64,000 bases of DNA from an uncultured Chloroflexia bacterium (GTDB lineage Bacteria > Chloroflexota > Limnocylindria > Limnocylindrales > CSP1-4). The first letter of the stretch is position 1. Every line of letters begins with the position of its first letter. A program made the position numbers and the translations under genes. This document shows positions 10-17,610 of the stretch, one piece after another. Under the pieces are notes generated by a model. It was not told the DNA's origin. It did no database searches and saw only the letters and a list, made by a program, of their open reading frames with translations. The DNA lies in NCBI GenBank assembly GCA_963796715.1, contig CAWCMN010000009.1, positions 966,172-1,030,171 of the forward strand. Direction: 5' to 3'.

Positions 10-3000
10 ATGACGCTGACCCTGACGCCGCCTAGCCCGACCCGCCCGCCGCTCACGCCGGAGCAGGAGCGCATCGTCGAGTTCGGCGATGGGCCGCTCG
101 TCGTGATCGCCGGCGCCGGGACCGGCAAGACGCGGGTCATCGTCGAGCGCTGCCGCTGGCTGCTCGAGACGAAGGGCGCCGGCAGCCGCGACGCCGACGG
201 CCGACTGCTCCCCGCGGAACCCCAACCCCAGCCAAATCCGGACCACCCGTTCAGCGGCCCGCTGCTGCCCGAGCAGCTCCTGGTCCTGACCTACAACGTC
301 AAGGCGGCCAGGGAGCTGGAGACGCGGCTGGACGAGGCGGTCGGCCCGGCGACGCGGGCCCGGATGACCGTCAGCAACTTCCACAGCTTCTGCCACCGCA
401 TCCTGTCGGACTCGGCGGGGGAGGCGGGCATGCCGCCGAACCCCGACGTCCTCGACGGCGTCGGCCAGTTGCTGCTCCTGCGCGATCTGCAGCCGGCGCT
501 CGCCCTCGTCTACCACAGCGAGTGGCAGCTCCAGGAGATCGTCTCGTTCATCAACCGGGCCAAGGACGAGCTGGTCACGCCCGGCCGGCTTCGACGTGTT
601 CGTGGCGGAGGAGCGGCGCGTCTTCGAGGCGCAGTACGGCGACTACGACGCGGTGGCCGCACAGCTCCTGACCGGGGGCCGGCTGGACGGGCCCGCGCAA
701 GGTGCGCGCTGACTACGCGCGCATCCGCGTCCAGGAGCGGGCGGAAGCCCTCGGAAAGACCCGCCGGGGCCATCGACCCCGAGGCCATGGAGAAGACGGC
801 CGACCGCGAGGCCCGACGCTATCTCGACGGCCACGGGCACGCCACCCCACGAAGCCACTTCCCCCCCGAGGTTCAGGCCCAGATCGACGAGCTGGCCGCC
901 ACCTACGTCCGCGACGGGGCGGCGCTGGAGGTCATGCGGCTCCAGGAGCTCGCCGCCGTCTATCGCGCCTACCAGGTCGCGCTGGTGGCCAGGGGCGCCC
1001 TCGACTTCGGCGAGCAGATCGCCGCCGCGACGCAGCTCTTCAAGACGCGCCCGAACATCCTGCGCCGCTGGCAGCGGCAGTTCCGCTACATCCTGGTGGA
1101 CGAGTTCCAGGACGCCAACATCGCCCAGATCGAGCTGATCGAGCTGCTGGGCCGCACGCCGGACCGGCCCGACAACGTGATGGTCGTGGGCGACGACGAC
1201 CAGTCCATCTACCGCTTCCGCGGCGCCAGCTTCGCCGCCTTCACCGAGTTCGACCGGCGCTTCTCCCGACCGCCCATCCACGACCCGGACGGCCGAGCGC
1301 CCGGGCCGCCGCCGCGCCTGCGCATCGAGCAGAACTTCCGCTCGATCGAGAACGTGCTGACGGCCGCCAACCGCCTGATCGGGCGCAACGCGATCCGCTT
1401 CGAGCCGGACAAGCGCCTGCGCACGGAGCGCGAGGTCGGTCCGTCGGTGGAGCTGATCGTCTGCGCCGGGCCGGAGGACGAGGCGGTGGCCATCGTCGAT
1501 GCCATCCGCGCGCGCCTTGGCGAGCACCCGCGCTGGTCGGACGTGGCCATCCTCTACCGCAAGCACAAGCATCGCGAGGCGCTGGTCGCCCGCCTGCGCG
1601 ACGAGGACATCCCGTACACGGTGGTCGGCGGGCTGTCGCTGTTCGCGACGCCGGAGATCCGCGACCTGGAGCAGGGGCTCCGCGCCATCGCGGACCCGGA
1701 GGACGACGTCGCGCTGACCCGGATGATGACCGCCGGCCCGTGGCGGCTGGATGCGCTGGAGATCCTGCGGGTCGCGCGGACGGCGCGGTTCGACCGCCGT
1801 CACCTCCTGCAGGTGGTGCGGGAGATCGTGGGCTCGGGCCGGATCGCGGAGGACCGCGCAGACGAAGCCGACGAGCCGGCCCCGACCCAGGCGCCGGCGG
1901 TCGTCGCCGTCGCCCCGGCCACGCAGGCCAAGCTGCGCCGGCTGCTGGGCGTCCTCGACGAGCTGCAGGAGCGCGCCTGGCGCGACGGCCCGCTGACGAT
2001 CCTGGACCGCTACCTGGAGCTGGGCGGCCAGGTGCTGGACATGATGGCCGTCGACACGACCGATGCCCATCGCATCGTCGCCAACATCGCCAGCTTCATG
2101 CGCTTCGCCGCCGACTGGCAGTCCGTGCATCCCACGGGCACGCTGGCCGAGTTCGTCGACTACCTGGGTGCCTACCAGGACGCGGGCGGCGAGCTGCCGA
2201 CCAGCGTGGAGCTGACGGAGGACGTCGAGGGCGTCCGCCTCATGACCGTCTACCAGGCCAAGGGCCTGGAGTTCCGCCACGTCTTCGTGCCCTGCCTCCT
2301 GGAAGGGGAGTGGCCCACGCGCGAGGGCTGGCGCGGCTACTTCCCGACCGAGCTGCTGCGCGAAGCCGTCCCGGAGGGCGACATCCACACGGAAGAGGAG
2401 CGGCGGCTCCTGTACGTGGCCATGACCCGCGCCCAGGAGACCCTGACGCTGACGACCCAGGTCGCGCAGGCGCCGGGCAAGACCAAGAGCCAGTCGCTGT
2501 TCATCGCCGAGCTGCTGGAAGGCGCGGGGCCGGAGCTGCTGCGCATCGACCGGACGGGCACCGCCCGGTGCCGGTCCCGACGCCGGGCGATGGGCTCGAC
2601 GAGGCCGAAGAGGCTGAAGAGGAGACCCCGCTCGATCGCTCACGGGCGCTCATGCGCCGGGTCATGCCGCTGCCGTCGAAGCGCGAGCGGCGGCTGGCGC
2701 TGCGGCTCCGCGCGACCGAGCTGGTCGGGCTCATGGAAGGGACCAGGGCCGCCGACCCCGAGACGCCGGAGGCGCGCGTGGGGTTGGAGGAGCAGCTCGC
2801 CGCGGTCGGGCGGTCGGCGGCGATGGGCGCCGACGAGGCGCGGGCGGCCGGCCTGGACCCGCTGACGTTCCACGAGATCGGCCTGGACACCGCCGCCGGC
2901 GCGAACCTGCTGCAGGTCGCGCCGCTGCCCGGCCAGGTTCAGCTACTCGCAGTTCGATCAGTACGACTCCTGCCCGCTGCGCTATGCCTTCGGCCACGTC

Positions 3001-3693
3001 TACCGCATGCCCCAGCCGGAGCGGCCGGGAGGGGCGCGGGCCTTCGGGTCCACCGCGCACGCGGCCTTCGAGGCGTTCACGAAGGAGCGCCGCGAGCGGC
3101 TGGCCCGCGGCGAGCCGTCGCCGACCCGCGCGACCTGGAGCGGCTCTTCCGCGAGCACTGGGTGCCGACCGACTTCGGCGACAAGACGACGGAGGAGCGC
3201 TACCAGCGGCACGTGGACACGCTGCTGGACAACTTCTGGGACGGCGAGCTCAGCAGCCTGGGCGAGGCGATCCACGAGGAGCTGCCCTTCGAGCTCGTCC
3301 TTGACGCCGGTGGGGATGCTCGACCGGTGGTGGTCTACGGGATCCATCGACCGGATCGACCGGCTGCCGTCCGGCGGCATCGAGGTCATCGACTACAAGA
3401 CCGGCAAGGTCGAGTCGCAGAAGAACGTCACCGAGAGCCTGCAGCTCTCCATCTACGCGCTCGCCTGCCGCGACGCCCTGGGCCTGGGCACGCCCGAGCG
3501 GGTGACCCTCTACTTCACCGAGTCGGCCACCCGCATGAGCACGACCCGGACGGACGAGCAGCTGGACCTGGCGCGGGCGGCGATCCTGGAGCGGGTGGCG
3601 CGGATGCGGACGGGCGACTTCGCGGCGACGCCGTCGGCCAAGGCGTGCGGTTGGTGCGACTACGCGCGGATGTGCCCGGAGCGGGTGGGCTAG
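10..3693 (+). CDS. UvrD/REP-family helicase fused to C-terminal PD-(D/E)XK nuclease (AdnA/B/AddA-like), several apparent frameshifts
   Basis: AGAGTGKT, ILVDEFQD, VGDDDQSIYRFRGA, MTVYQAKGLEF and EERRLLYVAMTRA in ORF 10..2865. The nuclease part IDRIDR..VIDYKTG and Cys motif CGWCDYARMC are in 3007..3693. Confidence 0.88.
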
Positions 3694-3843
3694 CCGATGG
3701 GAGTGCTTGTGAACGTTCCCGTCAATCGAACTCATTGGCTTAGCCACCATCGCCAGGCCGCACAGGTCCGTCCCGGTCGGTGCGGCGCCTGATGGTGATG
3801 GCGGCCCGAGCCGTTCTACCTTGCCGGCCTAGAAGGGATTCCC

Positions 3844-5550
3844 ATGGACTACGCCGCTGTTCGAGTTAGTGACATCATTCATGATATCAACCGCGACCTA
3901 TATTTGCCTGCGATCCAGCGGGAATTCGTGTGGAAGCCCGACCGGATTGCGCGGCTGTTCGACTCCATCATGGCCGATTATCCAATCGGCTCGTTCCTTT
4001 ACTGGCGTCTCGATCAGAAGAACAAAGATGAATGGCCCGTCTACAACTTCGTTCAGCATTTCGATGAGGATGCCCCGCATAACGACCCTGCGGACATGCG
4101 AGGAATCACCAAGGACGTAACCCTGATTCTCGATGGCCAGCAACGGATTACGTCACTCTTCGTCGGCTTGCGGGGTTCCTACCGCTACTTCTATTACAAC
4201 TGGCGAACCACGTACCTCTATCTGAACCTCCTTAAGCCCCCCGTGGCGAATGAGGACAATCCCGAGGAGCTGACCTACGGCTTTGCCTTCAGGGAAGGGC
4301 CGGAGCCAAGCGGCAGCGAGCCGCAGCTCTGGTACCTGGTTGGGAGAATCCTGGACGATCCAGATGACCCCGAGGACGCTAAGGCGGCGGTAAGGGCAGA
4401 ACTCGAGGGTCTGCCAGATGAGCAGCGAGAAAACGCCAACCGGCTGATTGGTCGACTGCACACACGAATCCACACGACGTTGGTCGGCAACTACTACCTG
4501 GAGAAGTCCCAGGACTACGACAAGGTCCTACAGGAGTTCGTGCGCGCCAATTCAGCCGGCGTGACGCTGGAGTACTCAGACTTGCTGCTCGCGACCGCGA
4601 CGGCAAAGTGGAAGAGCGTCGATGCTAGAAGCGCGATTCACGACCAGACCGATGCGCTCAACGGTATCGGCACGGGCTACAGCTTCGGCAAGGATTTCGT
4701 CCTCAAGGCATGCCTATATCTCACGGTGCCGTTACCGATCCAGTACAGGGTCAAGAACTTCACGCTGACGAACCTTCAGGCAGTCGAGGGCAATTGGGAG
4801 ACAATCAAGGAGTCGTTGTCGACGACGGTGCGGCTCATCGCGCGGTTCGGCTTCACGTCCAAGAACGTTGTGGCTCCGCTGGCCCTGCTCCCGATCGCGT
4901 TCTACATAATGCGGAGACGAAACCCAAGCTTCGATGTTTCGTCTTCGGCTGAAGACGCAGAGAGCCAAGTTGCAATTCGGCGGTGGTTCATCTTCGCCAC
5001 TCTGAAGAATGCTTTTGGCGCCTCGTCGGATACGACCCTAACTCGACTGCGAGACATCTTGGTTGAAGCCGACGCACGAACTCCGTTCCCTGCGGCGGCC
5101 CTGTATCAATCTCTTGGAATCGAGCCCAGCCTTAACGAGGCCGAGGTCAATCGCCTTGTGGGGCAGCAGTATCAGGGTCGATACACCAACCTCGTGCTTT
5201 CACTGCTCTATCCAGGTCGCGACTGGAGGGACGCCATCTTTCACGAAGACCATATCTTCCCGCAGGCGGAGTTCCGAATCGGGGCATTGCGCACGCGTGG
5301 CTACGACGACGCCAGGATTCAATCCTTCCTGGCAAAGTTCAACTGTCTTCCTAATCTTGAGCTCTTGACCGACAGCGAGAACCTGTCGAAGAATGCCACC
5401 CCCTTCGACGATTGGATTCAAACGCGAGAGCTTGCGTTCCGTCAGCGACACCTCATCCCAACCGACCTACCAGGCTACGAATTCGACTCGTTTGATCAGT
5501 TCTTTACTGCGCGTTCTTCTCTGATTCGGACTGCGTTGCAAGGCCTGTAA
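3844..5550 (+). CDS. GmrSD-family protein (DUF262 + DUF1524/HNH), putative type IV restriction enzyme
   Basis: LPAIQREFVW and LDGQQRITSL (DUF262); C-terminal EDHIFP...NLELL..SEN HNH-type motif. Intact ORF. Confidence 0.85.
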   Translation: MDYAAVRVSDIIHDINRDLYLPAIQREFVWKPDRIARLFDSIMADYPIGSFLYWRLDQKNKDEWPVYNFVQHFDEDAPHNDPADMRGITKDVTLILDGQQRITSLFVGLRGSYRYFYYNWRTTYLYLNLLKPPVANEDNPEELTYGFAFREGPEPSGSEPQLWYLVGRILDDPDDPEDAKAAVRAELEGLPDEQRENANRLIGRLHTRIHTTLVGNYYLEKSQDYDKVLQEFVRANSAGVTLEYSDLLLATATAKWKSVDARSAIHDQTDALNGIGTGYSFGKDFVLKACLYLTVPLPIQYRVKNFTLTNLQAVEGNWETIKESLSTTVRLIARFGFTSKNVVAPLALLPIAFYIMRRRNPSFDVSSSAEDAESQVAIRRWFIFATLKNAFGASSDTTLTRLRDILVEADARTPFPAAALYQSLGIEPSLNEAEVNRLVGQQYQGRYTNLVLSLLYPGRDWRDAIFHEDHIFPQAEFRIGALRTRGYDDARIQSFLAKFNCLPNLELLTDSENLSKNATPFDDWIQTRELAFRQRHLIPTDLPGYEFDSFDQFFTARSSLIRTALQGL

Positions 5551-5581
5551 TGCATCGAGCGGTGCGGGACGGCCCATTCCC

Positions 5582-7923
5582 TTGCGCGCGCTGCGACGTC
5601 ATGTGCATCGGTATCCGGACGGTGAAGGCGTGACTGGAGCCACGGCTTCAGCAGCCGACGCGGGCAACATGATGGCAACCTTGGCCTCGAACCTCCCGCT
5701 GATAGGCCACCTCGGACCGGGAGTTGGTGACGAGGTCTGTCGCCAGGTCGGGCTCAGCGGTCCGCTCGAGGCCGTCAGTCGCGGAGCGCTGTCTGTCAAG
5801 GAATGCGATGCCCTGGCGAATTGGATCGGCTTCCTCGCGTTCGACGAGCTTGAGGCGGTGCCGTTCGTCGAGATTGCCCCGACCGTGTTCGCCAATTCTG
5901 ATGCCTCAATTCCTGACGATTTCGTCCCCGTTCGCGTGCTTGGAGGAATGCGGCGGAACCACGTCAAGCGATGGGGCGAATTCGGTGTTCTCAGTTGCGC
6001 CGATGTCCTCAAGTGGTGGTCCGTCGGGAGGGGGTCGGCCCGTGACCTGCTCCAAACCTTGATTAGAGCCGAACTGGCGACGCCGGACGACATCGAAAGG
6101 CGACCGTGCCGAGCATCCACGGAGCCCGCCAAGACCTCAGCAACATCACTTCGGTTCCTGGGACGACTGAGGTGAATGCGGTCGACGTTGAGGGGCAACT
6201 CAGTGTCGTGGCGGCGTGGGCAGCTGGCGAAACCGATGCGGTCTCGCTGACCGAGGCGCTCCACCGAGCTGCCATCGCTGATGCGCTGCCTGCAGACGTG
6301 GGTGTGGCTTGGCGGTCGCTAGAAGCAGTGGATCTCCGGATGCTCGGCGGTCCGCACCTCGGTCGATATGACCCAATCGCCGCGGTCGAACGTGTGCTGC
6401 ACGGCATCGATGATCGTCATAGGACGGTCCTTGAGCAGCGCGCCCTGGCGCTCTCCCGTCGCAGGACGCTCGCCGAGATAGGTGATGGGCTGGGCGTCAC
6501 CCGTGAACGCGTGCGTCAGATCGAACGGAAGGCGACACGCGGTCTGTCCAAAGTGCTCAGACGTCCCGAGAATGACGCCCTGCGGCGAAGCGCTGCGAGG
6601 ATTCGTGACGAGATTGGAGCTGCAGCGCCCCTTCGGGCAGTCTTGGACTCCGAGGAGTTAGGCCGGGTCAGGCCGGGCTGGAGCATCGACGAACCAGCCG
6701 CGAAGTTGCTGCTCTGGGTCGCAGGGCCGTACATCGAGCGAAGAGGCTGGGTCGTTCTCGCGGATGCGGACCCAGACTGAGCTCACGCGCCGCCCTTGAT
6801 GAGGTGACGCGCGAAGGGCCGGTCCAGGAGGCCGAGGCCGAACGTTCCGTGGAGATGGTAGGGATACACCGTGACTTCGCCCGTGAGTGGATTGTGAGTC
6901 TCGGTGGCTTTCGCCTCATGGACGGCTATGTCATTCGTTGGCGAGGCGGCCTCGCAGACAAGGCCGAAGCGATCCTGCAGATGAGCATGGAACCGCTGAC
7001 TCGCGAGGACCTCCTCGAGCGGATTGCGGAACCGCGGAGCGCGGCTTCACTCGCGAACGCGCTTCTGGCCGATCCAAGGTTCAAGCGGACCGGTGTCCAC
7101 CACTTCGGGCTCGCGGGCTGGGACCACGACGAGTACACGACGATCTCTGATGAGGTCGCGCAGGAGATCGCCAGGCAGGGAGGCGAGGCGACTGTCGAGC
7201 ATCTCGTCGAGTACGTCTCGACGACATACGGTGCCGCGCCAGTCTCGGTGCGTGCGTTCGCGCATTCGCACCGGTTCGTCCCGACCGCCCATGGAACGAT
7301 CAGAGAACGCATCGAAGGGGAGACGACCGTCGCGACCACTTCCAGACCAATCGCGTTCACGAGGTCCATCTTTCGCGGGTCCACAGGATGGGTTCTGCGC
7401 CTGCGCGTTACAGATCAGACCCTGCGCGGCTCGGGCACTCCTATCCCGCCCGCACTCGCGCGCAAGATCCAGGTCCTTCCAGGCGAGAGGCGGGTATTCA
7501 CGTCAGAATACGGTGAGGTTGTGGTGGCCTGGCCGTCGATAGTTCCGACGGTGAGCACGGTCCGCGGAGCCGTGGAGGGGCTCGATGCACGCCCCGGTGA
7601 CTACCTGTTTGTCGAGTTCGGCAATAACGACACGGTCCTGTTCCAAGTCGCGCACCAATCAGACCTCGAGGCGCTGGGCGGCGAGGCCCGACTCGCACGT
7701 GAGGTGGGTTTGAGGCTTGGGGTCGAGGGCCCGCTTACCGTCCTGATTGCTGAAATCCTTGGGCATGAGCGGAGACCCCCCTCCTTCCCGAAATGAGATT
7801 CTCCAGCGCCTGCGCGCTCGGGGGGAGGAGGACCTGGCCGCTCTTGTCGAGACAACCGTCGGCCCGGGCTCGGATGACGATCTGATGGACACCCTCCTCC
7901 GAACCTTCGGAGGCAGAAGTTGA
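5582..7923 (+). CDS. Large protein with RNAP alphaCTD-like HhH, sigma70 region-4 HTH, winged-helix segments and an uncharacterised C-terminal domain (split over 4 frames)
   Basis: WGEFGVLSCADVLKWWSVGRGSARDLL (alphaCTD-like) and TLAEIGDGLGVTRERVRQIE (sigma4). It continues in 6804..7796 and in a final frame NEILQRLRARGEEDLAAL...LLRTFGGRS, ending TGA at 7921-7923. Confidence 0.7.
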
Positions 7924-8031
7924 GCGCGATGGGTGACAATTCCAGTCCGCGAGCGGGCGGCGTTGGTGGCTCCGAATCGCTTGTGCAAGACGGGCCGGAT
8001 CAGCGGGCGACATTCGTAGTGGACGCCTAAC

Positions 8032-8574
8032 GTGCGGGTGCAGGAGTGGCCATTCGCCCGGGCGATCGAGATCTTCCGCGAACAAGGGTCAGAGGCCGAG
8101 TGCTACGGCCAGGTGGTGGCCTTCCTGCGCGAGGCTGACCCGCCGCGCCACCACAAGGTGAAACATGACGCTCGGTTCGTTTTCGACCAGACGAAGCTCG
8201 CCGACGACATGCGGATCTGTCTTAAGAGCGTCGGATGGCAACACGGCGATGTAGTCAGCGGACAGCTGGCGATTGACGGCGTGCGCCTACCCGCCGTTCG
8301 CGCTGACATGATCAAGCAATGCACCCACGTGGTGTTCGAATTCGGGAATGTGGCGTCGTTCGCTCACAACTTGCTCACGCGGGTGACGTTGGCGACGGCG
8401 AAGCGAGGCATCCGCCTCACCGCCCTCATCACGCCGACGTCCGTATTCGCGCGGCAGATTGACTCCAACCTGGCGGCCTTCGAGAGGGTTGCTGGCGAGA
8501 TGAATCGTCTGGCTGACGCCCATCCCGAAGCGATTCCCGGTCCATTGATGGTGGTCGGCGTTGAACCTGAGTGA
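8032..8574 (+). CDS. BglII/BstYI-like restriction-endonuclease-fold protein
   Basis: ADMIK..HVVFEFGNVASFAHNL resembles the D..K..VEVQFG motif; also AAFERV and C-terminal PLMVVGVEP. Size 180 aa and defence context fit. Confidence 0.55.
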   Translation: MRVQEWPFARAIEIFREQGSEAECYGQVVAFLREADPPRHHKVKHDARFVFDQTKLADDMRICLKSVGWQHGDVVSGQLAIDGVRLPAVRADMIKQCTHVVFEFGNVASFAHNLLTRVTLATAKRGIRLTALITPTSVFARQIDSNLAAFERVAGEMNRLADAHPEAIPGPLMVVGVEPE

Positions 8575-10628
8575 CCCGCCTTCCGACCCGGGGCCCGCGG
8601 GATGCTTCCAGCGGCTGTCACTGCGCGAGGAGTACCGGACGGACACGGCCGACATGATCAAGGACTTCTACGAGCCATGCCTGGCCGTCGCGGCTTCATA
8701 CGACCGTGCCGTCGGCTACTTCACAAGCCACGGGCTGGCACTGGCAGCGCGCGGCCTCGAGGCGTTTGCTTCCGGGGGGCATCGAATGCGTCTGGTGGCT
8801 AGTCCGGTGCTATCCGAAGAGGATCTCGATGCCATCGATCGGGGCCTCTTGGCCCGCGAACGCATCGTCGAGCGGCGCCTTCTCGAGGCCCTCCGCGACG
8901 GCGGCGATTCTTCTCATACGGTCGCCCTGGCGTGGCTCGTCGCTGAGTCCCGTCTCGAAATCCAGATTGCAGTCCCGCGCGCTGGACCAGGTATCTACCA
9001 CGAGAAGGCCGGCCTCTTCCACGATGCTGACGGCTGTGTCGTCGCGTTCCAGGTCGGCCAACGAGACGGTGGGTGGCCTGGTCAGTAACTTCGAGGCGAT
9101 TGACGTCTTCTTCTCGTGGGACGGCACGCGCGGTCGTGTGGCTCGGAAGGCCGCGAACTTCGAACGACTCTGGACTAACGACACGCCGGAACTCGATGTA
9201 ATGCCGCTACCGGCAGCAGTAGAACGCGAACTCATCATGCTCGCCGAGCAAAGTCCTCGTGGAATAGCCCCCATGCGCCCGCGCGACCCTCTCCCGGCAG
9301 CCAGGCCGGGTAGGTTTGCAGCCCCTGCCAACGTCGAGCCGCGTCCATACCAATCTGCTGCCATCGAGGCGTGGTTCGCGGCCGGCGCTCGCGGAATGCT
9401 TTCGATGGCGACCGGCACTGGGAAGACGAAAACCGCGCTATTCGCGGCCACCGAGTTGTTCGGTCAGCAAGGGAAACCACCGTGCCTCGTCATCGTCACC
9501 CCCTATATCCATCTCGTTGACCAGTGGGCGCGGGAAATCGAGGCATGGGGCCTGCGACCGACGCGATGTTATGAGGCGGGGGGCATCGTGGGAAGTCCGA
9601 GCCTGGGAGGCAGTCGACAGCCGGCGAGCTGGCGCGTCAAACCCGATATGCCTCATCGCGACCATCGCAACTGCCACAGGGCCGCGCTTTCTCCGGCTGG
9701 CGGACCGCCTCCCGGCGGACGTTATGTTCATCGCCGATGAGGTCCACCACCTCGGTGCCGATCAGGGGTCGTCAATTCTGCGTGACGCGTTTCCGTTTCG
9801 ACTCGGCTTGTCGGCCACACCAGAACGATGGGGGGATGAGGTCGGGAACCGTGCCCTCGAGACATACTTCGGCAAGGTGGTGTTCGAATTCGGGATCGGG
9901 GCTGCCATCGCAGCTAGGTGCCTTAGCCCGTATGAATACCTTCCCGTCCTCGTCGACCTCGAGGAAGACGAACTTGAGGCTTACCGCGACGTGATGGCCG
10001 ACATCGACGGTGCGCTCGCGGCCAAGGGCGAGGGGTTCGACGCCAAGGTCAGGTCACTCTTGAACCGGCGCTCGGACATCCTCAATACGGCGCGGGGAAA
10101 GCTGGATGCCGTTCGTCGCCGGGTGACTGAACATCCACCGGATCGTACGCTGCTCTACTGCGCGTCCAGGGAGCAGATGGGCGCGGTCTCAGATCTGCTC
10201 CGCGACAGGGGGATTGTTCCTGCGCCTTTCACGGCGGAAGAGGACCGGACGACGCGACAGAACGTGCTCGAGCGTTTCGCCGCCGGCGCTATCCCGGCCC
10301 TTGTGGCGATGCGCGCCCTCGACGAAGGTGTCGACGTGCCGGCGACTCGGGAAGCGCAGCTGCTGGCGAGCAGCGGCAACCCGAGGGAGTTCATCCAGCG
10401 GCGCGGGCGAGTGCTCAGGCCGAGCCCAGGCAAGACTCATGCGACCATCGTGGACTACGTGGTCGTCCCGGAGATTGACGCCCGCCTCTCGCAAGAGATC
10501 GCGGCCAAGGAGGTGCGTCGTGTCTTGGAATTCGCAGGTTCCGCGATGAATGCCGATGCGGCCCGGCAGCGAATTTGGGGCCTTCTCGACCGCTCCAGTT
10601 GCTGCACCACATAGGGGAGCACATGTAA
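8561..10628 (+). CDS. HKD(PLD)-domain SF2 DEAD/DEAH helicase (Dnd-associated restriction-helicase type), frameshifted
   Basis: DFYEPCL..YDRAVGYFTS, IYHEKAGLFHD, SANET, MATGTGKT, ADEVHH, LGLSATPER, LDEGVDVP and FIQRRGRVLR across ORFs 8561, 8706 and 9316. Likely stop TAA at 10626-10628. Confidence 0.85.
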
Positions 10629-10811
10629 TGGGTGTGATGGAGATTCTGCTGAGTATGTACACGAGCTCGACGCCAAGGTGAAGTCGGTCCTCATCGATGT
10701 GATCATGGCTGAACAGGCGATGTTCGATCTCGACAAGCCGCGGATCAAGGGCGAATCAAGGATGCGATCGACGCGGCGGTCCGACGAGGAGCGGCATCGG
10801 ATTCTCACTAG
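10628..10811 (+). CDS. Small (~60 aa) helical protein between helicase and ATPase (frameshifted; absent from the ORF track)
   Basis: GGGGAG RBS and TAATG overlap with the helicase stop. Reconstructed as MGVMEILLSMY-ELDAKVKSVLIDVIMAEQAMFDLDKPRIKGE-IKDAIDAAVRRG. Confidence 0.5.
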
Positions 10812-12710
10812 ACTCAAGCTGAAGGACTTCCGTCAGTACCGAGGCGAGCATCAACTGACGTTCGCCCACGACGAATCGCACAACGTAACGGTCATCACGG
10901 GGATGAACGGAACCGGGAAAACTGGGCTCTTCTACGCCCTCAACTGGTGCTTGTACGGGGACGCACAGGCACTGCCCGGTTCACTCATCAACAAGGCGGC
11001 CCTCCAAGAAGAGGCGTTTCCAACCGCAGTCGTCGAGTTGCACTTCCTCCATGAAGGCGCCCGTTACGTGTGCCGTCGAGAGCAAGTTCGCACACCGAAC
11101 GGGTCAGAACGCGAAGGAAGCTTCACTTTGCAGCAGCTCGAAGCGGGGGGTCGCGTAGTCGACCTTAAGAACGCGCCAGAGCGCGTGAACGTCATTCTCC
11201 CGCGGGACGCCCGCCGCTATTTCTTCTTTGACGGCGAGCGCATCGACGAGTTGGCGCGTCCGGGTCACGAGGCCGAGGTCAAAGAAGCGGTTCGCAGCGT
11301 CCTGAAGCTGAAGGTGCTGAGCGTGCGGCCCAGCATCTTGACGAGACCGCTAAGGACTACGCCAAGACCTTGCGCAGCGAGGGCGAACTGACCAGCGAGC
11401 AGGAGCAGCTCCTCGTCGATAGTGAGCGCCTGAGCGAGGAGACCCTGAAGCTACAGGGCGTCATTGAGACCGGCGGCGTACAAGTCGGCGACCTCACCTT
11501 CCAGCTATCTAGCGTCCGAAACAAGCTGGAGCAGTTGGCCGACCTTAAGGCGATCCAGGTCGAGGAGAAGTCGGCCAACGAGACCCTGGAGCGCCTCCAG
11601 GCCGAATTCACCGAGATCGACCGCGATTTGCGTGAGGCGGTCGATCGCACGGGCCCGGTGGTCGCCGGCTCACGTCCAGCTGGCCAAGCAGATCCTCGAT
11701 GAGAAGCGCGCCAAGGGCGAGATACCCACCGGCATTCGGCAGCAGCTCGTCGAGGACCTGATCGTCAGGGGACCTGTATCTGCGGTCGCCCACTCGATGG
11801 GGATGCCCGGGCGGCCCTCGCGGCACGCCACAGGGACTGTTTCCACCGAGGTCACCGAGGCTGTGCTCGAGGCGGCGGCGGAAATCCGGGTTATCGAGGC
11901 GAAGGGCGAGGACGCGCTTGCAAGGGTTCGGCGGTCAGTCGGTCGGAGATCGGAACTCCGCGATGAACTCACTGATGCGGAACGTCAGCTGCAGGAGATC
12001 AGGCGTCGTCTCCTCTTCGAATTCAACGAGGACGTCGCTGAGTTAGAGCGCACACGGTCGGCGCTCAAGGATCGGCTTCTCGACGCAAGGGTGGAACTCC
12101 AGCGGCACGAACGAGAATTGGAAGCGGCTAGGACGGACCTCGCCAAGACCCGCAGTCGACTGGAGGCGTTCGCCTCCAAGTCAAGCGAAGGGTTCCGAAC
12201 GAAACGACGCTACGAGATTGCCGCGAGCAGTGCTGACGCGGCCCGAACGCTGCTCCACCATTTCAGCACCGAGATGAGGGCCCGAATTGAGGAGGCGACC
12301 AACGACATATTCCTCCGCTTCGTCTGGAAGGAGAAGCACTTCCAGGCCGTGCGCGACACAAGGACTACCGGCTCGAGGTTGTAGACCGCTACGACGACCG
12401 ATCTCTACCGGGCCTCTCGGCCGGGGAGCGCCAGGTCCTGAGCCTCGCATTCATCGCCGGCATGTCGAAAGTCACTGGAGAAGAGGCACCACTCGTGATT
12501 GACACACCGTTCGGGCGCCTTTCCGAGTTGCCGGTATCAAGCATCGTGACCGAACTTCCTCAGCTCACCAAACAGCTCGTCCTGCTCGTAACGGACCAAG
12601 AGATCAACAACGAGGCGCGAGCCCTCCTTGCGCCCAGAATTGGGCGCGAATACGACCTTAGCTTTGATGATGAGACCGGCACGACGAGCATCGTCGAGGT
12701 AGCGCCATGA
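10795..12710 (+). CDS. Rad50/SbcC/DndD-like coiled-coil ABC ATPase with CxC hook, frameshifted
   Basis: LKDFRQY, Walker A GMNGTGKT, YFFFDGERI, coiled coil, TCICGRPL at ~11773 (alternative frame), signature LSAGERQVLSLAF and Walker B PLVIDTPFGRL. Confidence 0.85.
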
Positions 12711-13141
12711 CGGAGAACGACCGGGAGCGAAGTCGAGTCGATCGAGACCGATATTACGTTCAGGGCGACAAACATCACGTCTTCCAGGCGTGGGGCAAGG
12801 ATGACGAGACGTCGGCATTCCCCCACCCTGAAAGACGCCTTCGTGTTCGCCGCAGCCGTTGGGTGGGCCCATCGACGCCGGGTCGCCTTCCGTGGCCATC
12901 GTCAACATGTCGGCTTTTGGAGATCGTTCTCGCCGCAAGAGGACGTTTGGCTTCTCCAAGCCGCCATCGCAGAGACAGGGGACCCGGCCGCCGCAGCCGA
13001 TACGGGGAGAATCTCAGTATCGTCGAAGAGTATGCGAATGGCGGAATCGACCTCGTGAACGACTACGAGCGCGGTGACCGTGCGGCAACGGTTCTCGCCC
13101 TGGCGTCGCTCGTGACTGATACCGTCGCCTCCAGAGGCTGA
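12707..13141 (+). CDS. Dnd system-associated protein 4-like (DndE-like small protein), frameshifted
   Basis: FPTLKDAFVFAAAVG ... LLQAAIAETGD ... IVEEYANGGI; ATGA overlap with the ATPase stop. Confidence 0.7.
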   Translation: MTENDRERSRVDRDRYYVQGDKHHVFQAWGKDDETSAFPHPERRLRVRRSRWVGPSTPGRLPWPSSTCRLLEIVLAARGRLASPSRHRRDRGPGRRSRYGENLSIVEEYANGGIDLVNDYERGDRAATVLALASLVTDTVASRG

Positions 13142-13186
13142 TTTCGGTATCTCAGAGTTTCGTCGCGGAGTCTCTTGACGTGCCAA

Positions 13187-14098
13187 TCAAGGGTGGTGCG
13201 TCGCCTGGGCTGACCTATCGTCCTTGCGGCCGAAGGTCGACAGAAGCGCGTCCATCAGTTCATCCTCGGTCTCATCGCCGCTCGATAGGTTATTCAGGCC
13301 GGCTAATTCGTCTTCTCCGCGAGCGGTGAGCCGCCGTTTGATGGCATTCCAGCTCGGCGGCTGCGCACCAGTCAGCCCGAGTGCGCGACCTACCAGTTCG
13401 GCACTCGGCGCCTGCGGCTCGGACCCGAGGCCGATCTTGAGCGAGGCGGGTCTCCCCCTCCAGAGCCGCCAGAACACTCGCGCGCGCGACGCTGAACTTC
13501 AGGGCCTGCACGCCGAACTCAACGAACAAGTAATCACCAACCATCGCGCGCAGATCGTCTGCCTGCCGGCGGACGAAATCGAGGTTTGGACCAAGCTGTG
13601 GCCATCGGAGCTGCAAAGTGCCGGAGGCCGAGTCGAAGGCCTTCTCAACGCCGGGGTGCAGGCCGACCTCTCGGGCAAGGGCGATGGGGACGGGTACTGA
13701 GTACCCGTCGAGGGCCCCTGCGTCGACGAGGAGGCGCAGACTCCACCCCGCACACCGCGAAAGACTGATTTCGTGAAGGCGACGGAGCGTGCCTCGGACG
13801 CCGTTTGGCTCGCGGGTACCCATCGGGGGACCTCAGCGCCATCGTTTACGAAAGGGCCTAGCCCGCCGTGCAGACATCCGTTCACTAGCTTCCGATCGGC
13901 CTGCGGCCAACCCGATGAGCGTAGCGCCCGCGCGATTTCGCGCGCGGTTAGGTATGGCTGCACGATGAGGACCTCCATAATGGCATCGCGCAGCACCTGC
14001 GCGCGCTCCCTGCTCATTCGGTCGGCGCCGTGCGACCCGCGATCGGTTGATGGATCAGCTCGAGCGGGCTCGACCACGACCGGAGTGGCCCTCTTCAT
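13187..14098 (-). CDS. wHTH protein with a C-terminal domain paralogous to that of the 5582-7923 protein, frameshifted
   Basis: N-terminal LRDAIMEVL..LTAREIARAL..VNGCL..PRW wHTH. C-terminal GWSLRLLV..PIALAR..GDYLFVEFG..RRLTARGEDELA..LMDALLSTFG from ORFs 13499, 13290 and 13187. Confidence 0.65.
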
Positions 14099-14230
14099 GC
14101 CGATAGGGTGCGACTCCGAATTGGCGGGGTGCAAGCGGCTGGAGGTCCTAGGGAGCCGCGACTGGTGCCCTGTGAGCGCCGCTCCGAGCCAAGGGGAGTG
14201 AGCGAGTGCGTCGATCGGCTAAAATCGGGT

Positions 14231-15581
14231 ATGACCCCCGCCGCACACCCGCCGGAGGAGCATGTCGTGCACGTTCTCAAGGCGCCACCGCGGGTCGAGG
14301 CGTCCGATGGGCACAGTCCGAGCCGGCGGGTCGTCGAACTCTTCGCCGGCGTTGGCGGATTTCACCTCGGCCTTGAACCCTCTGGCTGGAGCGTGGTCTG
14401 GGCGAACCAGTGGGAGCCTTCGACCCGAAGCCAGGCGGCGGCGGACTGCTACCGGGCCCACTTCCCCAAGGTCGAGTTGGTCTGCGAGGACATCGCCACG
14501 GTCCTGGATCGAGCAGAGCTGGACCCATCGGTCTCCTGGATACGACGAGCTGCTGGTTGGCGGCTTCCCATGCCAGGACTACTCGGTGGCCAAGACGCTC
14601 AACCAGGCTCACGGTCTGATTGGCCGGAAGGGTGTGCTGTGGTGGGAGATCCACCGGCTTCTGAAGATGAAACGCTCGCCTCTGATTTTCCTCGAGAATG
14701 TCGACCGCCTGTTGAAATCGCCCGCCGCGCGCCGAGGTCGGGACTTCGCGATCATGCTCGCCTCCCTGGCCGACCTTGGTTACAGCGTCGAGTGGCGGGT
14801 GATTAACGCCGCGGACTACGGCTTCCCCCAGAAACGACGACGCGTGTATATCCTCGGCCGCCTCGACACACTCGAGCCGAGTGACCCATACGAGTTGCTG
14901 CTGCGCGACGGCGTGCTGGCTCGGGCGTTTCGGGTCGTTCAGAAAGGGGTGCCGGTCGGGTGGACATCGACGTTTGAACTTGGTCGCGGCGACCTAGCTG
15001 AGATCACCGACGCGTATGCAGCGCCGAACGATACGTCACCTTTCCACAGCGCCGGCTAGATGCGCGATCGCGCCGTCTGGAGCCTCGACGTGGCGCCCCA
15101 GTACGAGGATCACTTCGCGACGTTGAGGGAGATTGTCCAACCGGACCACGAGGTGCCGGCACGATTCGTCGTTCCACAAGCTCAGCTCGAGGCTTGGCAG
15201 CACTTGAAGGGCGCGAAGCGCGAGCATCGTGTTCACAAGGCAAGCGGCTCCGCGTACTACTACACGGAGGGACCGATACCGTATCCCGACTCGCTTGATG
15301 GTCCGGCACGCACGATCTTGACAGGCGAGGGTGGTGCGACCGCGTCGCGGTTCAAGCACATCATCCGGACCGACAGCGGGGCGTATCGGCGTCTGACCCC
15401 ATGGGAACTCGAGAAGCTCAACGGGTTCAGCGGAGTCTGGACCGATACCGGCATGAGCGATAGCCGCCGCGCATTCTGTATGGGCAACGCCCTGATCGTC
15501 GGAGTGATTGAGCGTATCGGGGCGCAACTTGCCAAGGATTCGGCATTGTTAGGTGCCGAGCGCGCGACGATCCCCGCCTGA
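14231..15581 (+). CDS. dcm: DNA (cytosine-5) methyltransferase, M.Sau3AI-like (one frameshift, in-frame TAG at 15057-15059)
   Basis: ELFAGVGGF, WANQWEPS, GGFPCQDYSVA, LENVDRLLKSP..RGRDFA, VINAADYGFPQKRRR, RTILTGEGG and MGNAL. Confidence 0.9.
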
Positions 15582-15593
15582 GGAGCAGCGGCT

Positions 15594-16037
15594 GTGCCGG
15601 GCCTGCAACTCCCCAAACCCTCCGCCATCGACTCCAGCTGTGCGCTCGGTCATGCAGGCCAATCGAGCGAGGCGCACCGGGCCCGAGAGGACCCTATGCA
15701 CCGCCCTGCGGACCGCCGGCCTGGTTGGGTACCGGTTGAATTCGCAAAGGCGCCGGGTCGCCCTGACATCCCATACCCAGGCAGGCGCCTCGCGATCTTC
15801 GTCCACGGCTGCTTCTGGCACCACTGCCCCGTGTGCTACCCGAACCTACCAAGGTCGCACGTCGAGTTCTGGGCCCGCAAGTTCGAACTCAACCGCGAGC
15901 GCGACGCTCGCAAACGTTCAGCTCTGGAGGGCGATGGTTGGCGTGTCGTCGAGGTACGGGAGTGTGACGTGCGCGAGCGTCTTGGCCAGGTGGTCGAGAT
16001 GGTGGGCGTCGTCTACAGGGACGCCTCCGTCCTCTAA
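15594..16037 (+). CDS. vsr: Very short patch repair endonuclease (internal frameshift pair)
   Basis: PGRPDI..LAIFVHGCFWHHCP..FWARKFELNRERD..GWRVVEV; directly after the C5 MTase. Confidence 0.9.
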   Translation: MPGLQLPKPSAIDSSCALGHAGQSSEAHRAREDPMHRPADRRPGWVPVEFAKAPGRPDIPYPGRRLAIFVHGCFWHHCPVCYPNLPRSHVEFWARKFELNRERDARKRSALEGDGWRVVEVRECDVRERLGQVVEMVGVVYRDASVL

Positions 16038-16122
16038 GGCGCCCGCCCGAATAGTCCTTCTTCTTGCGTCGCGCACCCTACAGGAACAGCACAATTGGGG
16101 TGTTGGCCAGCAGCCCGGACGG

Positions 16123-17452
16123 TCAGTCGTCGACGAGGATCTCCTCAGGACTTCGCAGGCGGAGCCGGTCGGCATATCCGGCATCGACGTGACCGAGCCA
16201 GGCCTCCACCTGGGAAACCCCTCCGCGAGCGCGAGGCGCTCCACGATTTCGGCGACCTGCAGCCCATGAATGAGGACGAGGGGATAGGCGTCCTCCGCAA
16301 CCTCACGTTGCGTAGCCGCGGAGAAGTAGGACGTGGTGACATAGACGCCAAGCCACCCTCGCCTCAGGCGCGCCACCGTCCTGGCTAAGTCTTGGGCGCT
16401 CGTGGCAACCGTTGTCTGCTCGCACTTAGCCTGACCGAGGACAACCAGCTTTGCCGTCGCGAAGCCGGAACCGACATCGAGGCGCCCCACAAAGTCGATT
16501 CCGAAGTCGCCAGACTTGCGGGTAATCCATCCGCGTCGGTAGCGTCCCGATTCGACGAGGACCTCCTCAGCGATCCGCTCAGCAACGGCCTCGAAGCCGT
16601 GCTCTCCCGATCCCACCGAGCCCTTTCTTGTAGTGCTGATACACCGTCCGCAGCACCAGCGCCTCATGGGAGCCTGAGGGTGGAAGCTGGTCGGATTTGG
16701 CAACAACCGACTGGCCGTACACCCTTCGCCTCACGTGATCCAGCGCGGGTAATCCCTCCGCAACCCAGCGTCGCCAGCTGGCCGGCGCGAGGGCCAACGT
16801 CTCTTCGATGTGGCCGCCGGGCCGGCGACGTGCGTCAATCCAAGCCCATGGGACGGTGTCGCCCTTCGGCCGACAAATCGAGGACGAGGAAATCAAAACG
16901 GTAATTTGGGAATGTGGTCTGGGAGCTAGGATCGGCCTGTGTGATGAGTTCCGCGCGTTCGACCAGGGCAATCCCGTCGAACTCCACCTGCCCCTTCACC
17001 GGTCCCCCTGTGGACACCCGGCGGAATAGCAACACCGGCGCTGCGGCCAATCGGCTATGTCGGTCGCCGCTGTGATGCAACGTGTATTGCTCCAGTAGGC
17101 CAGCGTTTCCCTCTGTTGATCCGGCAGATAACCTGGAGTCCGCACGGCTGTCGCCGAAGTACCGGACATGACCGTGATCGATGTCGAAATAGTCACTCCA
17201 TGGGGTCCCGGCCGACCCAGCCTTGTGTGGGCTACTTCCAATGAGGATCGCTGGTCGAACCGTGTCGGACGCACGTCGGACAAGCCGAAGCCGGTTGATG
17301 CCTCTTTCCAGCCGGACTGGCGCTAGTTCGGGCGACCTGGTCGCCGAGTAGAAGTTCGGTAGGCCGTCAATAGTCGGCTCCGAAACTCGTTGCCCCTTTG
17401 GGTATCGGTAGACCTCCCGAACTCGCAGAGTCCCATCGGGTAGGTCCGTCAT
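16123..17452 (-). CDS. AspBHI/LpnPI/MspJI-family 5mC-dependent restriction endonuclease (SRA-like N-terminus + Mrr catalytic domain), frameshifted
   Basis: SSPHKAGSAGTPWSD..VRYFGD, KGQVEFDG, FPNYRFDF, GDFGIDFVGRLD, VLGQAKC, ARLRRGWLGVYVTTSYFS and terminal RSPEEIL. Confidence 0.85.
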
Positions 17453-17610
17453 CCTGCAAAGGGTAGGCGACGCTGCCGCGGCTGGATAGGTGGAGCTGGG
17501 GAGGCCACCCCACCGACCCCCCGTCCGACGTCTCATAGGGGCTGGCGTAGAATCACTTCCCGAAGCGGGCAGGCCGCGGCGGGACGGCACTGACGAAGGG
17601 GGCGACTGGC

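Follow-up and report, generated by a model that had tools for sequence, protein, structure and literature searches.

Protection by the haloarchaeal DndCDEA-PbeABCD system was reported to depend on phosphorothioation (PT) of DNA (Xiong 2019, PMC6459918). According to the main text of that paper, 320 of 553 PbeAC pairs were solitary, with no dndCD within 10 kb, and 155 of these 320 lay near candidate base-modifying genes; a pairing of solitary Pbe with methylation was suggested, no test of it being made there, and the possibility that solitary PbeAC is inactive was also raised. In the main text of a later computational work (Krishnan 2024, PMC10853773), PbeABCD was recast as a CxC-ABC-ATPase/DndE system with an HKD nuclease-superfamily 2 (SF2) helicase and a small disordered protein. 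Many CxC-centred systems in which cytosine methylases replace the PT genes were described there (Fig. 4A iv), and a gene with an MTaX1 domain, a term used a single time and left undefined in that text, was frequent in them but not universal. The way in which viruses are stopped is disputed between the main texts of the two papers, as no DNA cleavage was reported in the former and cleavage by the HKD nuclease was put forward in the latter. In the literature searched, the PbeABCD experiments found were PT-coupled only, and none addressed a Pbe system coupled to a methylase. The present analysis concerns positions 5582-16037 of a stretch of 64,000 nucleotides (the window; contig CAWCMN010000009.1, positions 966,172 to 1,030,171) from an uncultured Chloroflexia bacterium, the assembly of which (GCA_963796715.1) is 94.74% complete. 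The locus is a rare and, in the current assembly, broken copy of a known system, and it is probably a methylation-coupled member of the PbeABCD/CxC-ABC-ATPase-DndE family of restriction-like defence. An earlier note, made from the sequence alone, had taken it for an undescribed system and had itself named a match to a described one as the refutation of this view; such a match, to PbeABCD, was found for the core.

A DNA search of 40 related genomes returned a homologous locus in a genome of the same family and another genus (G022), and this locus (L009, contig G022:C2) served as the intact reference copy for the window alignments. Its gene set was whole and comprised a nuclease-fold protein of 185 amino acids (aa), pbeA, a pbeB of 62 aa, a pbeC of 637 aa with a CICG hook and a pbeD of 164 aa, together with a dcm of 474 aa and a vsr of 143 aa, divergently transcribed. 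The open reading frames (ORFs) across 5582-16037 of the window were all short, with the frame switching repeatedly, and the 180-aa ORF of the nuclease-fold protein was the intact exception. The window orthologues were aligned to the G022 proteins by frameshift-aware dynamic programming, in which break positions are accurate to a few codons. The identity amounted to 55.4% for PbeA (675 aligned residues), 41% for PbeB (against the 62-aa ORF between pbeA and pbeC), 54.0% for PbeC (633 residues), 55.2% for PbeD, 58.5% for dcm, 72.3% for vsr and 43.5% for the nuclease-fold protein.

By sequence and predicted fold, the core of the locus is PbeABCD, alias the CxC-ABC-ATPase/DndE system, in the canonical gene order. 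This assignment was based on matches to PADLOC and TIGR models, on the structural alignment of PbeD with DndE and on the invariant CxC cysteines. In the window, the PADLOC model of PbeA matched three successive ORFs (8561-9088, 8706-9740 and 9316-10614, with E values of 4.5e-46, 1.8e-49 and 6.5e-107, respectively) and TIGR04095 matched the PbeA ORF pieces with E 1.2e-91, while the PADLOC model of PbeC matched the ORFs 10678-11391 and 11464-12384 (E 2.4e-44 and 1.1e-26) and ranked above DndD. The intact G022 orthologues fitted the PADLOC models over their full length (PbeA, E 8.5e-208, residues 2-669 of 672; PbeC, E 9.6e-126), and G022 PbeC also matched TIGR03185 (DndD) with E 1e-51. The H-x-K...D residues of PbeA were invariant in 19 sequences and kept in the window. 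The hook cysteines of PbeC, C327 and C329, were invariant across 45 homologues, and the window carries the hook as the peptide QGTCICGRP, with CICG encoded at 11775-11786. PbeB of G022 matched none of the family models searched, and the small, fast-evolving product expected between pbeA and pbeC was recognized by its position and size. The AlphaFold model of G022 PbeD (pLDDT 83.2) aligned best to the DndE structures 5wtu, 4lrv and 7x4e (Z 9.7, 9.4 and 8.8), and double ribbon-helix-helix proteins of the TraY type ranked after them (Z 7.0-7.6); a Foldseek search with this model gave no significant match (E 0.75).

The co-oriented plus-strand run of an HKD-helicase, a protein of about 60 aa, a CxC ATPase and a DndE-like protein, described in the earlier note, was borne out, each gene lying where it had been placed. 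The three junctions it had listed were also read as described: the nuclease gene and pbeA overlap by 14 nt (TTG start at 8561, TGA stop at 8572-8574), the stop of pbeA and the ATG of pbeB share TAATG at 10626-10630, and pbeC and pbeD overlap as ATGA at 12707-10. In G022, the stop of the nuclease gene overlaps the start of pbeA as ATGA. The nuclease gene was intact, whereas every other gene was interrupted in the alignment to G022.

The locus shares with PbeABCD, as presented in the main text of Xiong 2019, the same four genes in the same order (HKD-helicase, small PbeB, DndD-like PbeC and small PbeD). It differs from the PT-dependent DndCDEA-PbeABCD in being linked to dcm-vsr, with no dndC found, and in having its operon led by an additional gene for a BglII-fold protein. 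The best-fitting description is that of the methylase-linked CxC-DndE systems in the main text of Krishnan 2024, namely a CxC ATPase, a DndE cognate, an HKD-SF2 protein, a small protein and a C5 methylase without PT genes; an MTaX1 gene is named for these systems, and the window set contains Vsr and a BglII-fold protein, which may or may not correspond to MTaX1. In comparison with DndABCDE-DndFGH, DndD is the sister of PbeC and the fold of PbeD is that of DndE, but no DndC was found in the own genome, PbeC carries a CxC hook and the effector is an HKD-helicase (no DndFGH search was made).

Coupling to methylation is suggested because no DndC was found, because the sole PF00145 gene of the genome lies in the locus and because dcm-vsr accompanies nuclease-pbeABCD in three arrangements. 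The own genome contained no match to the DndC model (TIGR03183) at E <= 0.001, in agreement with the absence claimed before, and none was found in G022, in G016 (another genome with a homologous dcm-vsr) or in G041, an unrelated metagenome-assembled genome that contains a seven-gene system of this type (L011:3600-12500). To survey the wider family, 80 PbeC loci were fetched from species-representative genomes. DndC was detected above the cut-off in 44 of the 50 genomes behind the closest 50 of these loci, and a single DndC query found dndC within at least 35 of the 80 loci, many of them truncated. By contrast, the two nearest loci with sufficient context, G022 and L011, lie in genomes in which no dndC was found.

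The complete combination of nuclease-pbeABCD and dcm-vsr was present in all three loci of the subclade (window, G022 and L011), each time differently arranged, and among the loci compared the G022-type nuclease, dcm and vsr set was limited to these three. Their PbeC proteins were mutually nearest, with 54-60% identity vs. at most 44% for the remaining full-length loci; PbeC encoded on a few short metagenome fragments was 56-73% identical, with a context too small to judge. In the window, dcm lies about 1.1 kb from pbeD, and dcm-vsr lies no more than 3 kb from the operon in G022 and L011. The three differing arrangements argue for a functional link of pbe with dcm-vsr and not for inherited synteny.

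In G016 (L010, G016:C10, 7100-10050), a NOV_C/PDC-S36-like gene directly adjoins dcm-vsr and pbe is absent there, while in G022 (850-9200) the nuclease-pbeABCD cassette is located between the homologous NOV_C gene and dcm. Judged from these two loci with the same NOV_C neighbour, the cassette looks as though it had been either inserted next to a methylase module already in place or lost from there.

A scan for C5 methylases covered four of the six genomes lacking DndC. The only C5 methylase of G041 was the one beside the pbe operon, G061 (Oceanobacillus, L031), likewise a genome in which DndC was not found, had two at a distance of about 9-12 kb from pbeC, G054 had C5 methylase at three places, the position of which relative to the pbe locus was not set, and no C5 methylase was found in G076 by the PF00145 genome scan. 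In a metagenomic locus (L135, 1028-6492), a dcm-like gene was located directly upstream of pbeA. PbeC of L135 and L031 is only distantly related to that of G022 (about 26% identity), and among the Pbe loci compared, coupling to a methylase seems to have had more than one origin. A metagenome scan with the PbeC alignment returned 29 mostly short loci, in which a dcm-like gene was seen only in L135 and neither the nuclease-fold gene nor vsr was found.

The replacement of sulfur by 5-methylcytosine (5mC), proposed in the earlier note, fits the genomes without DndC, the sole dcm and the pairing with dcm-vsr in all three loci, but as an idea it had already been put forward. The label of a GATC-type methylase was left unconfirmed, as it rests solely on the fold family of the nuclease and the word bias is unclear: in the own genome, the observed to expected ratios (0.93 for GATC, 0.70 for AGATCT and 0.99 for GGATCC) were too weak to point to a methylase target.

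The first gene of the operon (8032-8574) encodes the 180-aa protein called BglII-like in the earlier note, and this fold was upheld by both structure and profile comparisons, the catalytic motif D...E-x-(Q/E) being incomplete. The AlphaFold2 model (pLDDT 95.9, pTM 0.91) retrieved 16 chains of the PDB at E <= 0.001 in Foldseek, the matches listed all being BglII, BstYI, BamHI or OkrAI (E 1.9e-8 to 3.5e-6, TMq 0.57-0.81). A hidden Markov model compared with PDB sequences matched BstYI (5.1e-21), BglII (9.1e-12) and BamHI (4e-9). The likeness to BglII, BstYI, BamHI and OkrAI extends to the region of the D...E-x-(Q/E)-F/T-G motif, in which D92 corresponded to the catalytic Asp and the block preceding the invariant F-G-N to E-V-Q of BglII and BstYI or E-F-E of BamHI, residues which we take to be the catalytic ones in BglII and BamHI. 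The first Glu of the motif, presumably E93 of BglII and E111 of BamHI, is replaced by V101 in the window and by V, I or M in all 11 members of the clade, as opposed to E in 18 of 19 distant relatives, whereas the last acidic position is kept (E103 in the window, E or D across the clade). The gene differs from those of BglII and BamHI also in overlapping pbeA and in not being paired with the methylase. All four of these enzymes are assumed here to cut sites with a GATC core.

Relatives of this protein were rare. Among 1.84 billion representative proteins, a profile search retrieved 45 at E <= 0.001, of which 9 reached E <= 1e-30, a word-index search for homologues returned 3 proteins, including that of the window, and 400 other genomes of the phylum contained two weak matches. 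No match was found in the plasmid collection by tblastn, and no relative in a metagenome scan with the alignment of this protein. The gene was located directly upstream of pbeA in all three loci, and the overlap was read in the window and in G022; in the window some 5.7 kb separates it from dcm, and in L011 a GNAT gene intervenes between the two. As the first catalytic Glu has been lost in the whole clade, the protein is most likely a site reader or weak nickase that assists PbeA, rather than a type II enzyme acting by itself.

In the mechanism that these features would permit, Dcm sets 5mC on the host copies of a short target, and Vsr would repair the T:G mismatches arising from deamination of 5mC. 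A PbeC dimer, joined through the CxC zinc hook and acting with the putative double ribbon-helix-helix protein PbeD, could scan or clamp DNA, and PbeB might be a small regulator. Unmethylated foreign DNA would then engage the HKD nuclease-SF2 helicase PbeA, leading to translocation and cutting or to a block of replication. The BglII-fold protein, with the Asp and the last acidic residue kept and the first Glu lost, could act for PbeA by reading sites or by weak nicking. A more specific version, in which 5mC has taken over the role of the sulfur mark and the BglII-fold protein is a methylation-sensitive reader licensing the PbeA HKD-helicase and the CxC/DndE clamp, is offered tentatively. If true, it would make the locus a hybrid of type II recognition, a translocating nuclease like those of type I/III and an SMC-like motor.

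The pairing of Pbe with a methylase is a prediction already in print (PMC6459918, PMC10853773). What goes beyond the main texts of these papers is the BglII-fold protein that overlaps pbeA and has lost its Glu, as well as the frameshift load; the main text of PMC10853773 mentions neither BglII nor BamHI nor Vsr, and the supplements of both papers may list this architecture. A seven-gene version with a C5 methylase, Vsr and a site-reader fold would lend itself better than the sulfur pathway to studies of sensing by CxC-ATPase/DndE, and the intact G022-type operon, not the broken window copy, is the one suited to cloning.

Several observations weigh against a methylation-coupled Pbe system. PbeB and PbeD of G022 had no match in PADLOC. 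The name Dnd-assoc-4, given earlier to the last gene of the operon, found no basis in the broken window piece, for which neither PADLOC nor NCBIfam returned a dnd family, and was recovered only through intact G022 PbeD, the match of which to TIGR04062 (dnd_assoc_4; E 1.8e-13, 50.9 bits) lies below the curated cut-off of 74.25. The presence of dcm-vsr without pbe in G016 means that this pair is able to stand alone, and the nuclease gene of G022 lies next to dcm and is transcribed away from it, as in an ordinary type II restriction-modification (R-M) pair. The last two points, together with the fold shared by the small protein with true type II enzymes and the crowding of the island by other defence genes (HEC-05, AspBHI-like), would suit the juxtaposition of two independent systems, a type II R-M system (BglII-like protein, Dcm and Vsr) and a solitary PbeABCD, the latter being modification-free, through abortive action or sensing of DNA ends, or inert without PT, an inactivity raised for solitary PbeAC in the main text of Xiong 2019 (PMC6459918). 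Such a juxtaposition is unlikely, since the nuclease gene keeps to pbeA and not to dcm in position, the first catalytic Glu is missing throughout its clade but kept in nearly all distant relatives, and the protein was not found outside this context in the plasmid records or, apart from the two weak matches, in the phylum genomes. It is highly improbable that the system is PT-dependent with dnd or ssp modification genes elsewhere in the genome. Most relatives are PT-linked and the incompleteness of the assembly leaves room for a missing gene, but TIGR03183 was without a match in all four genomes searched with it, and in PT-linked relatives dndC adjoins pbe.

The other points against the methylation-coupled system concern the frame breaks, and these bear on a rival reading, in which everything between the sigma4 and AspBHI-like genes, both included, would be a row of decaying pseudogenes that no longer function. 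In pbeA-D, dcm and vsr of the window, 14 frameshifts and 1 in-frame stop were counted in about 7 kb (PbeA 3, PbeB 2, PbeC 5, PbeD 2, dcm 1 in addition to TAG 15057, and vsr 1). The background was taken from 157 long ORFs of two same-genus genomes, which gave 140 orthologue-like matches over 70,313 aa; 18 frame changes at 17 distinct places in this orthologous coding sequence of about 211 kb correspond to 0.085/kb. The density in the locus, about 2/kb, is about 22 times higher (14 observed vs. about 0.6 expected in 7 kb) and may equally mean that the locus is dead. The adjoining sigma4, minus-strand and AspBHI-like genes are split as well, and the island was absent from the 6 same-genus genomes searched, except for one 45-base match. 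Homopolymer runs of at least 4 occurred in 9 of 53 indel zones vs. 15% of background windows, which is no excess and is unlike the errors of polished long reads, and the intact HEC-05 gene (1.7 kb) and nuclease gene argue against a uniformly bad stretch. A search for motifs in the 53 frameshift zones gave none that was convincing (CGTGA, 11 vs. 2.9 expected before correction for some 500 words; GATC, 12 vs. 7.0).

Death of the cassette, and with it real decay as the source of the breaks, has an appreciable chance of being correct, but the frame breaks in the window are more likely than not to be chiefly errors of assembly, in an island that varies between strains and was poorly covered. This leaning, drawn from comparisons of sequence, is based on the intact motifs, the near absence of nonsense codons and the same pattern in a second long contig. 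After correction of the frame, the H-x-K...D and helicase motifs of PbeA, the Walker A, CxC, LSAGERQ and D-loop of PbeC, the FAGVGG, PCQ and ENV motifs of the methylase and FVHGCFWH of Vsr were all kept, and the identity to G022 was even along the genes. Decay is expected to bring roughly ten or more substitutions per indel, and at this ratio several nonsense codons would accompany 14 indels, whereas one was found. The independent copy in L011 showed the same pattern more strongly: its proteins are 57-78% identical to those of G022, and 39 frameshifts and 1 stop were counted over about 7 kb, while the flanks of its contig contained ORFs of 437-847 aa, their intactness being judged from ORF lengths only. 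In the own genome, rpoC was whole and even the essential dnaE1 was split by a frameshift (C8:~132650). A strain-variable island at low coverage would explain the recurring breaks. Candidate causes in both assemblies comprise low coverage of a variable island, collapsed variants and real decay. As a caution, two unrelated metagenome-derived assemblies show an excess of breaks here, relative to the genes measured (window) or to ORF lengths (L011), and frame breaks elsewhere in the own genome should be weighed against the background rate.

The features of the locus are collected in Table 1.

Table 1. Genes of the locus, with positions in the window
Feature	Coordinates	Strand	Remarks
nuclease-fold gene (BglII/BamHI fold, 180 aa, intact)	8032..8574	+	leads the operon; weak match to Pfam Endonuc-BglII (E 0.0027, under the cut-off)
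pbeA, HKD (PLD) nuclease + SF2 helicase	8561..10628	+	~3 frameshifts near 9054, 9580, 10590
pbeB, small protein ~60 aa	10628..10808	+	~2 frameshifts near 10654, 10749
pbeC, CxC-hook ABC (DndD-like) ATPase	about 10798..12710	+	~5 frameshifts near 11319, 11674, 11763, 11836, 12360
pbeD, DndE-like (dnd_assoc_4)	12707..13141	+	2 clear frameshifts near 12822, 12998
minus-strand gene separating pbeD from dcm	about 13190..14134	-	2-3 frames; no Pfam match
dcm, C5 cytosine methyltransferase	14267..15581	+	1 frameshift near 14523, in-frame TAG at 15057
vsr, T:G mismatch endonuclease	15592..16037	+	1 frameshift near 15741
sigma70-region-4 protein	5582..~7900	+	>=3 reading frames; Sigma70_r4 PF04545 E 1.8e-12

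The dcm gene was recognized by PF00145 on three pieces within 14108-15581 and vsr by the Pfam model Vsr (PF03852) on the ORF 15594-16037 with E 2.7e-10. The pair had been said to follow the operon; it is present downstream, but not directly, as the minus-strand gene intervenes. The genome has a G+C content of about 72%, and this falls to 0.57-0.665 at window positions 3500-17500 (approximately), between flanks of 0.70-0.74. No tRNA gene and no notable repeats were found at the borders of this island, and none of the 6 same-genus genomes had a substantive match to it.

The sigma4 protein, regarded in the earlier note as a member of the system, and the minus-strand gene had no counterpart in the G022, G016 and L011 loci. 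They are not members of the conserved system but may regulate the island. The Sigma70_r4 match was located on the ORF 6106-6780, and the label alphaCTD for the preceding part was not supported, as 5582-6175 had no Pfam match at E <= 0.01. For the C-terminal piece (6804-7796), the nearest ESM Atlas clusters were from Actinomycetota, with automatic names of hypothetical or sigma-70 and scores of 0.92-0.94. Membership of the sigma4 piece in MzaA was considered and dropped, the matches (NCBIfam 4.1e-8, PADLOC 2.5e-5) being confined to the region 4 helix-turn-helix. A 108-aa domain without a Pfam match occurs twice, at 7380-7703 (+) and 13434-13754 (-), with 43.5% identity between the copies and motifs resembling FTRSIFRG...GDYLFVEFG. 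One copy ends the sigma4 protein and the other is C-terminal in the minus-strand gene, so that together they bracket the pbe operon. The N-terminus of the minus-strand gene product looked winged-helix-like by eye and matched no family.

The GNAT gene of L011 (L011:5601-6851, +) encodes an acetyltransferase with an SCP2 domain, is located between dcm and the nuclease gene and has no counterpart in the window or G022; its layout presumably resembles that of Eis. At the left edge of the island in the window, where the G+C content is 0.57-0.61, an intact 568-aa protein with GmrSD_N (DUF262) is encoded at 3844-5550 (+). It fitted the PADLOC candidate HEC-05 from end to end (E 5.9e-174) and also gave weak SspE-like matches in its N-terminal part. 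On the other side, a gene for an AspBHI-like methyl-directed restriction enzyme at 15918-17590 (-) is divided into two ORFs and converges on the end of vsr, overlapping it. Its halves correspond to RE_AspBHI_N at 16835-17590 (E 3.3e-20; PADLOC mREase_II, 2.4e-61) and Mrr_cat at 15918-16706. The position of a 5mC-dependent AspBHI-like nuclease beside the sole C5 methylase of the genome implies that the two would need non-overlapping specificities.

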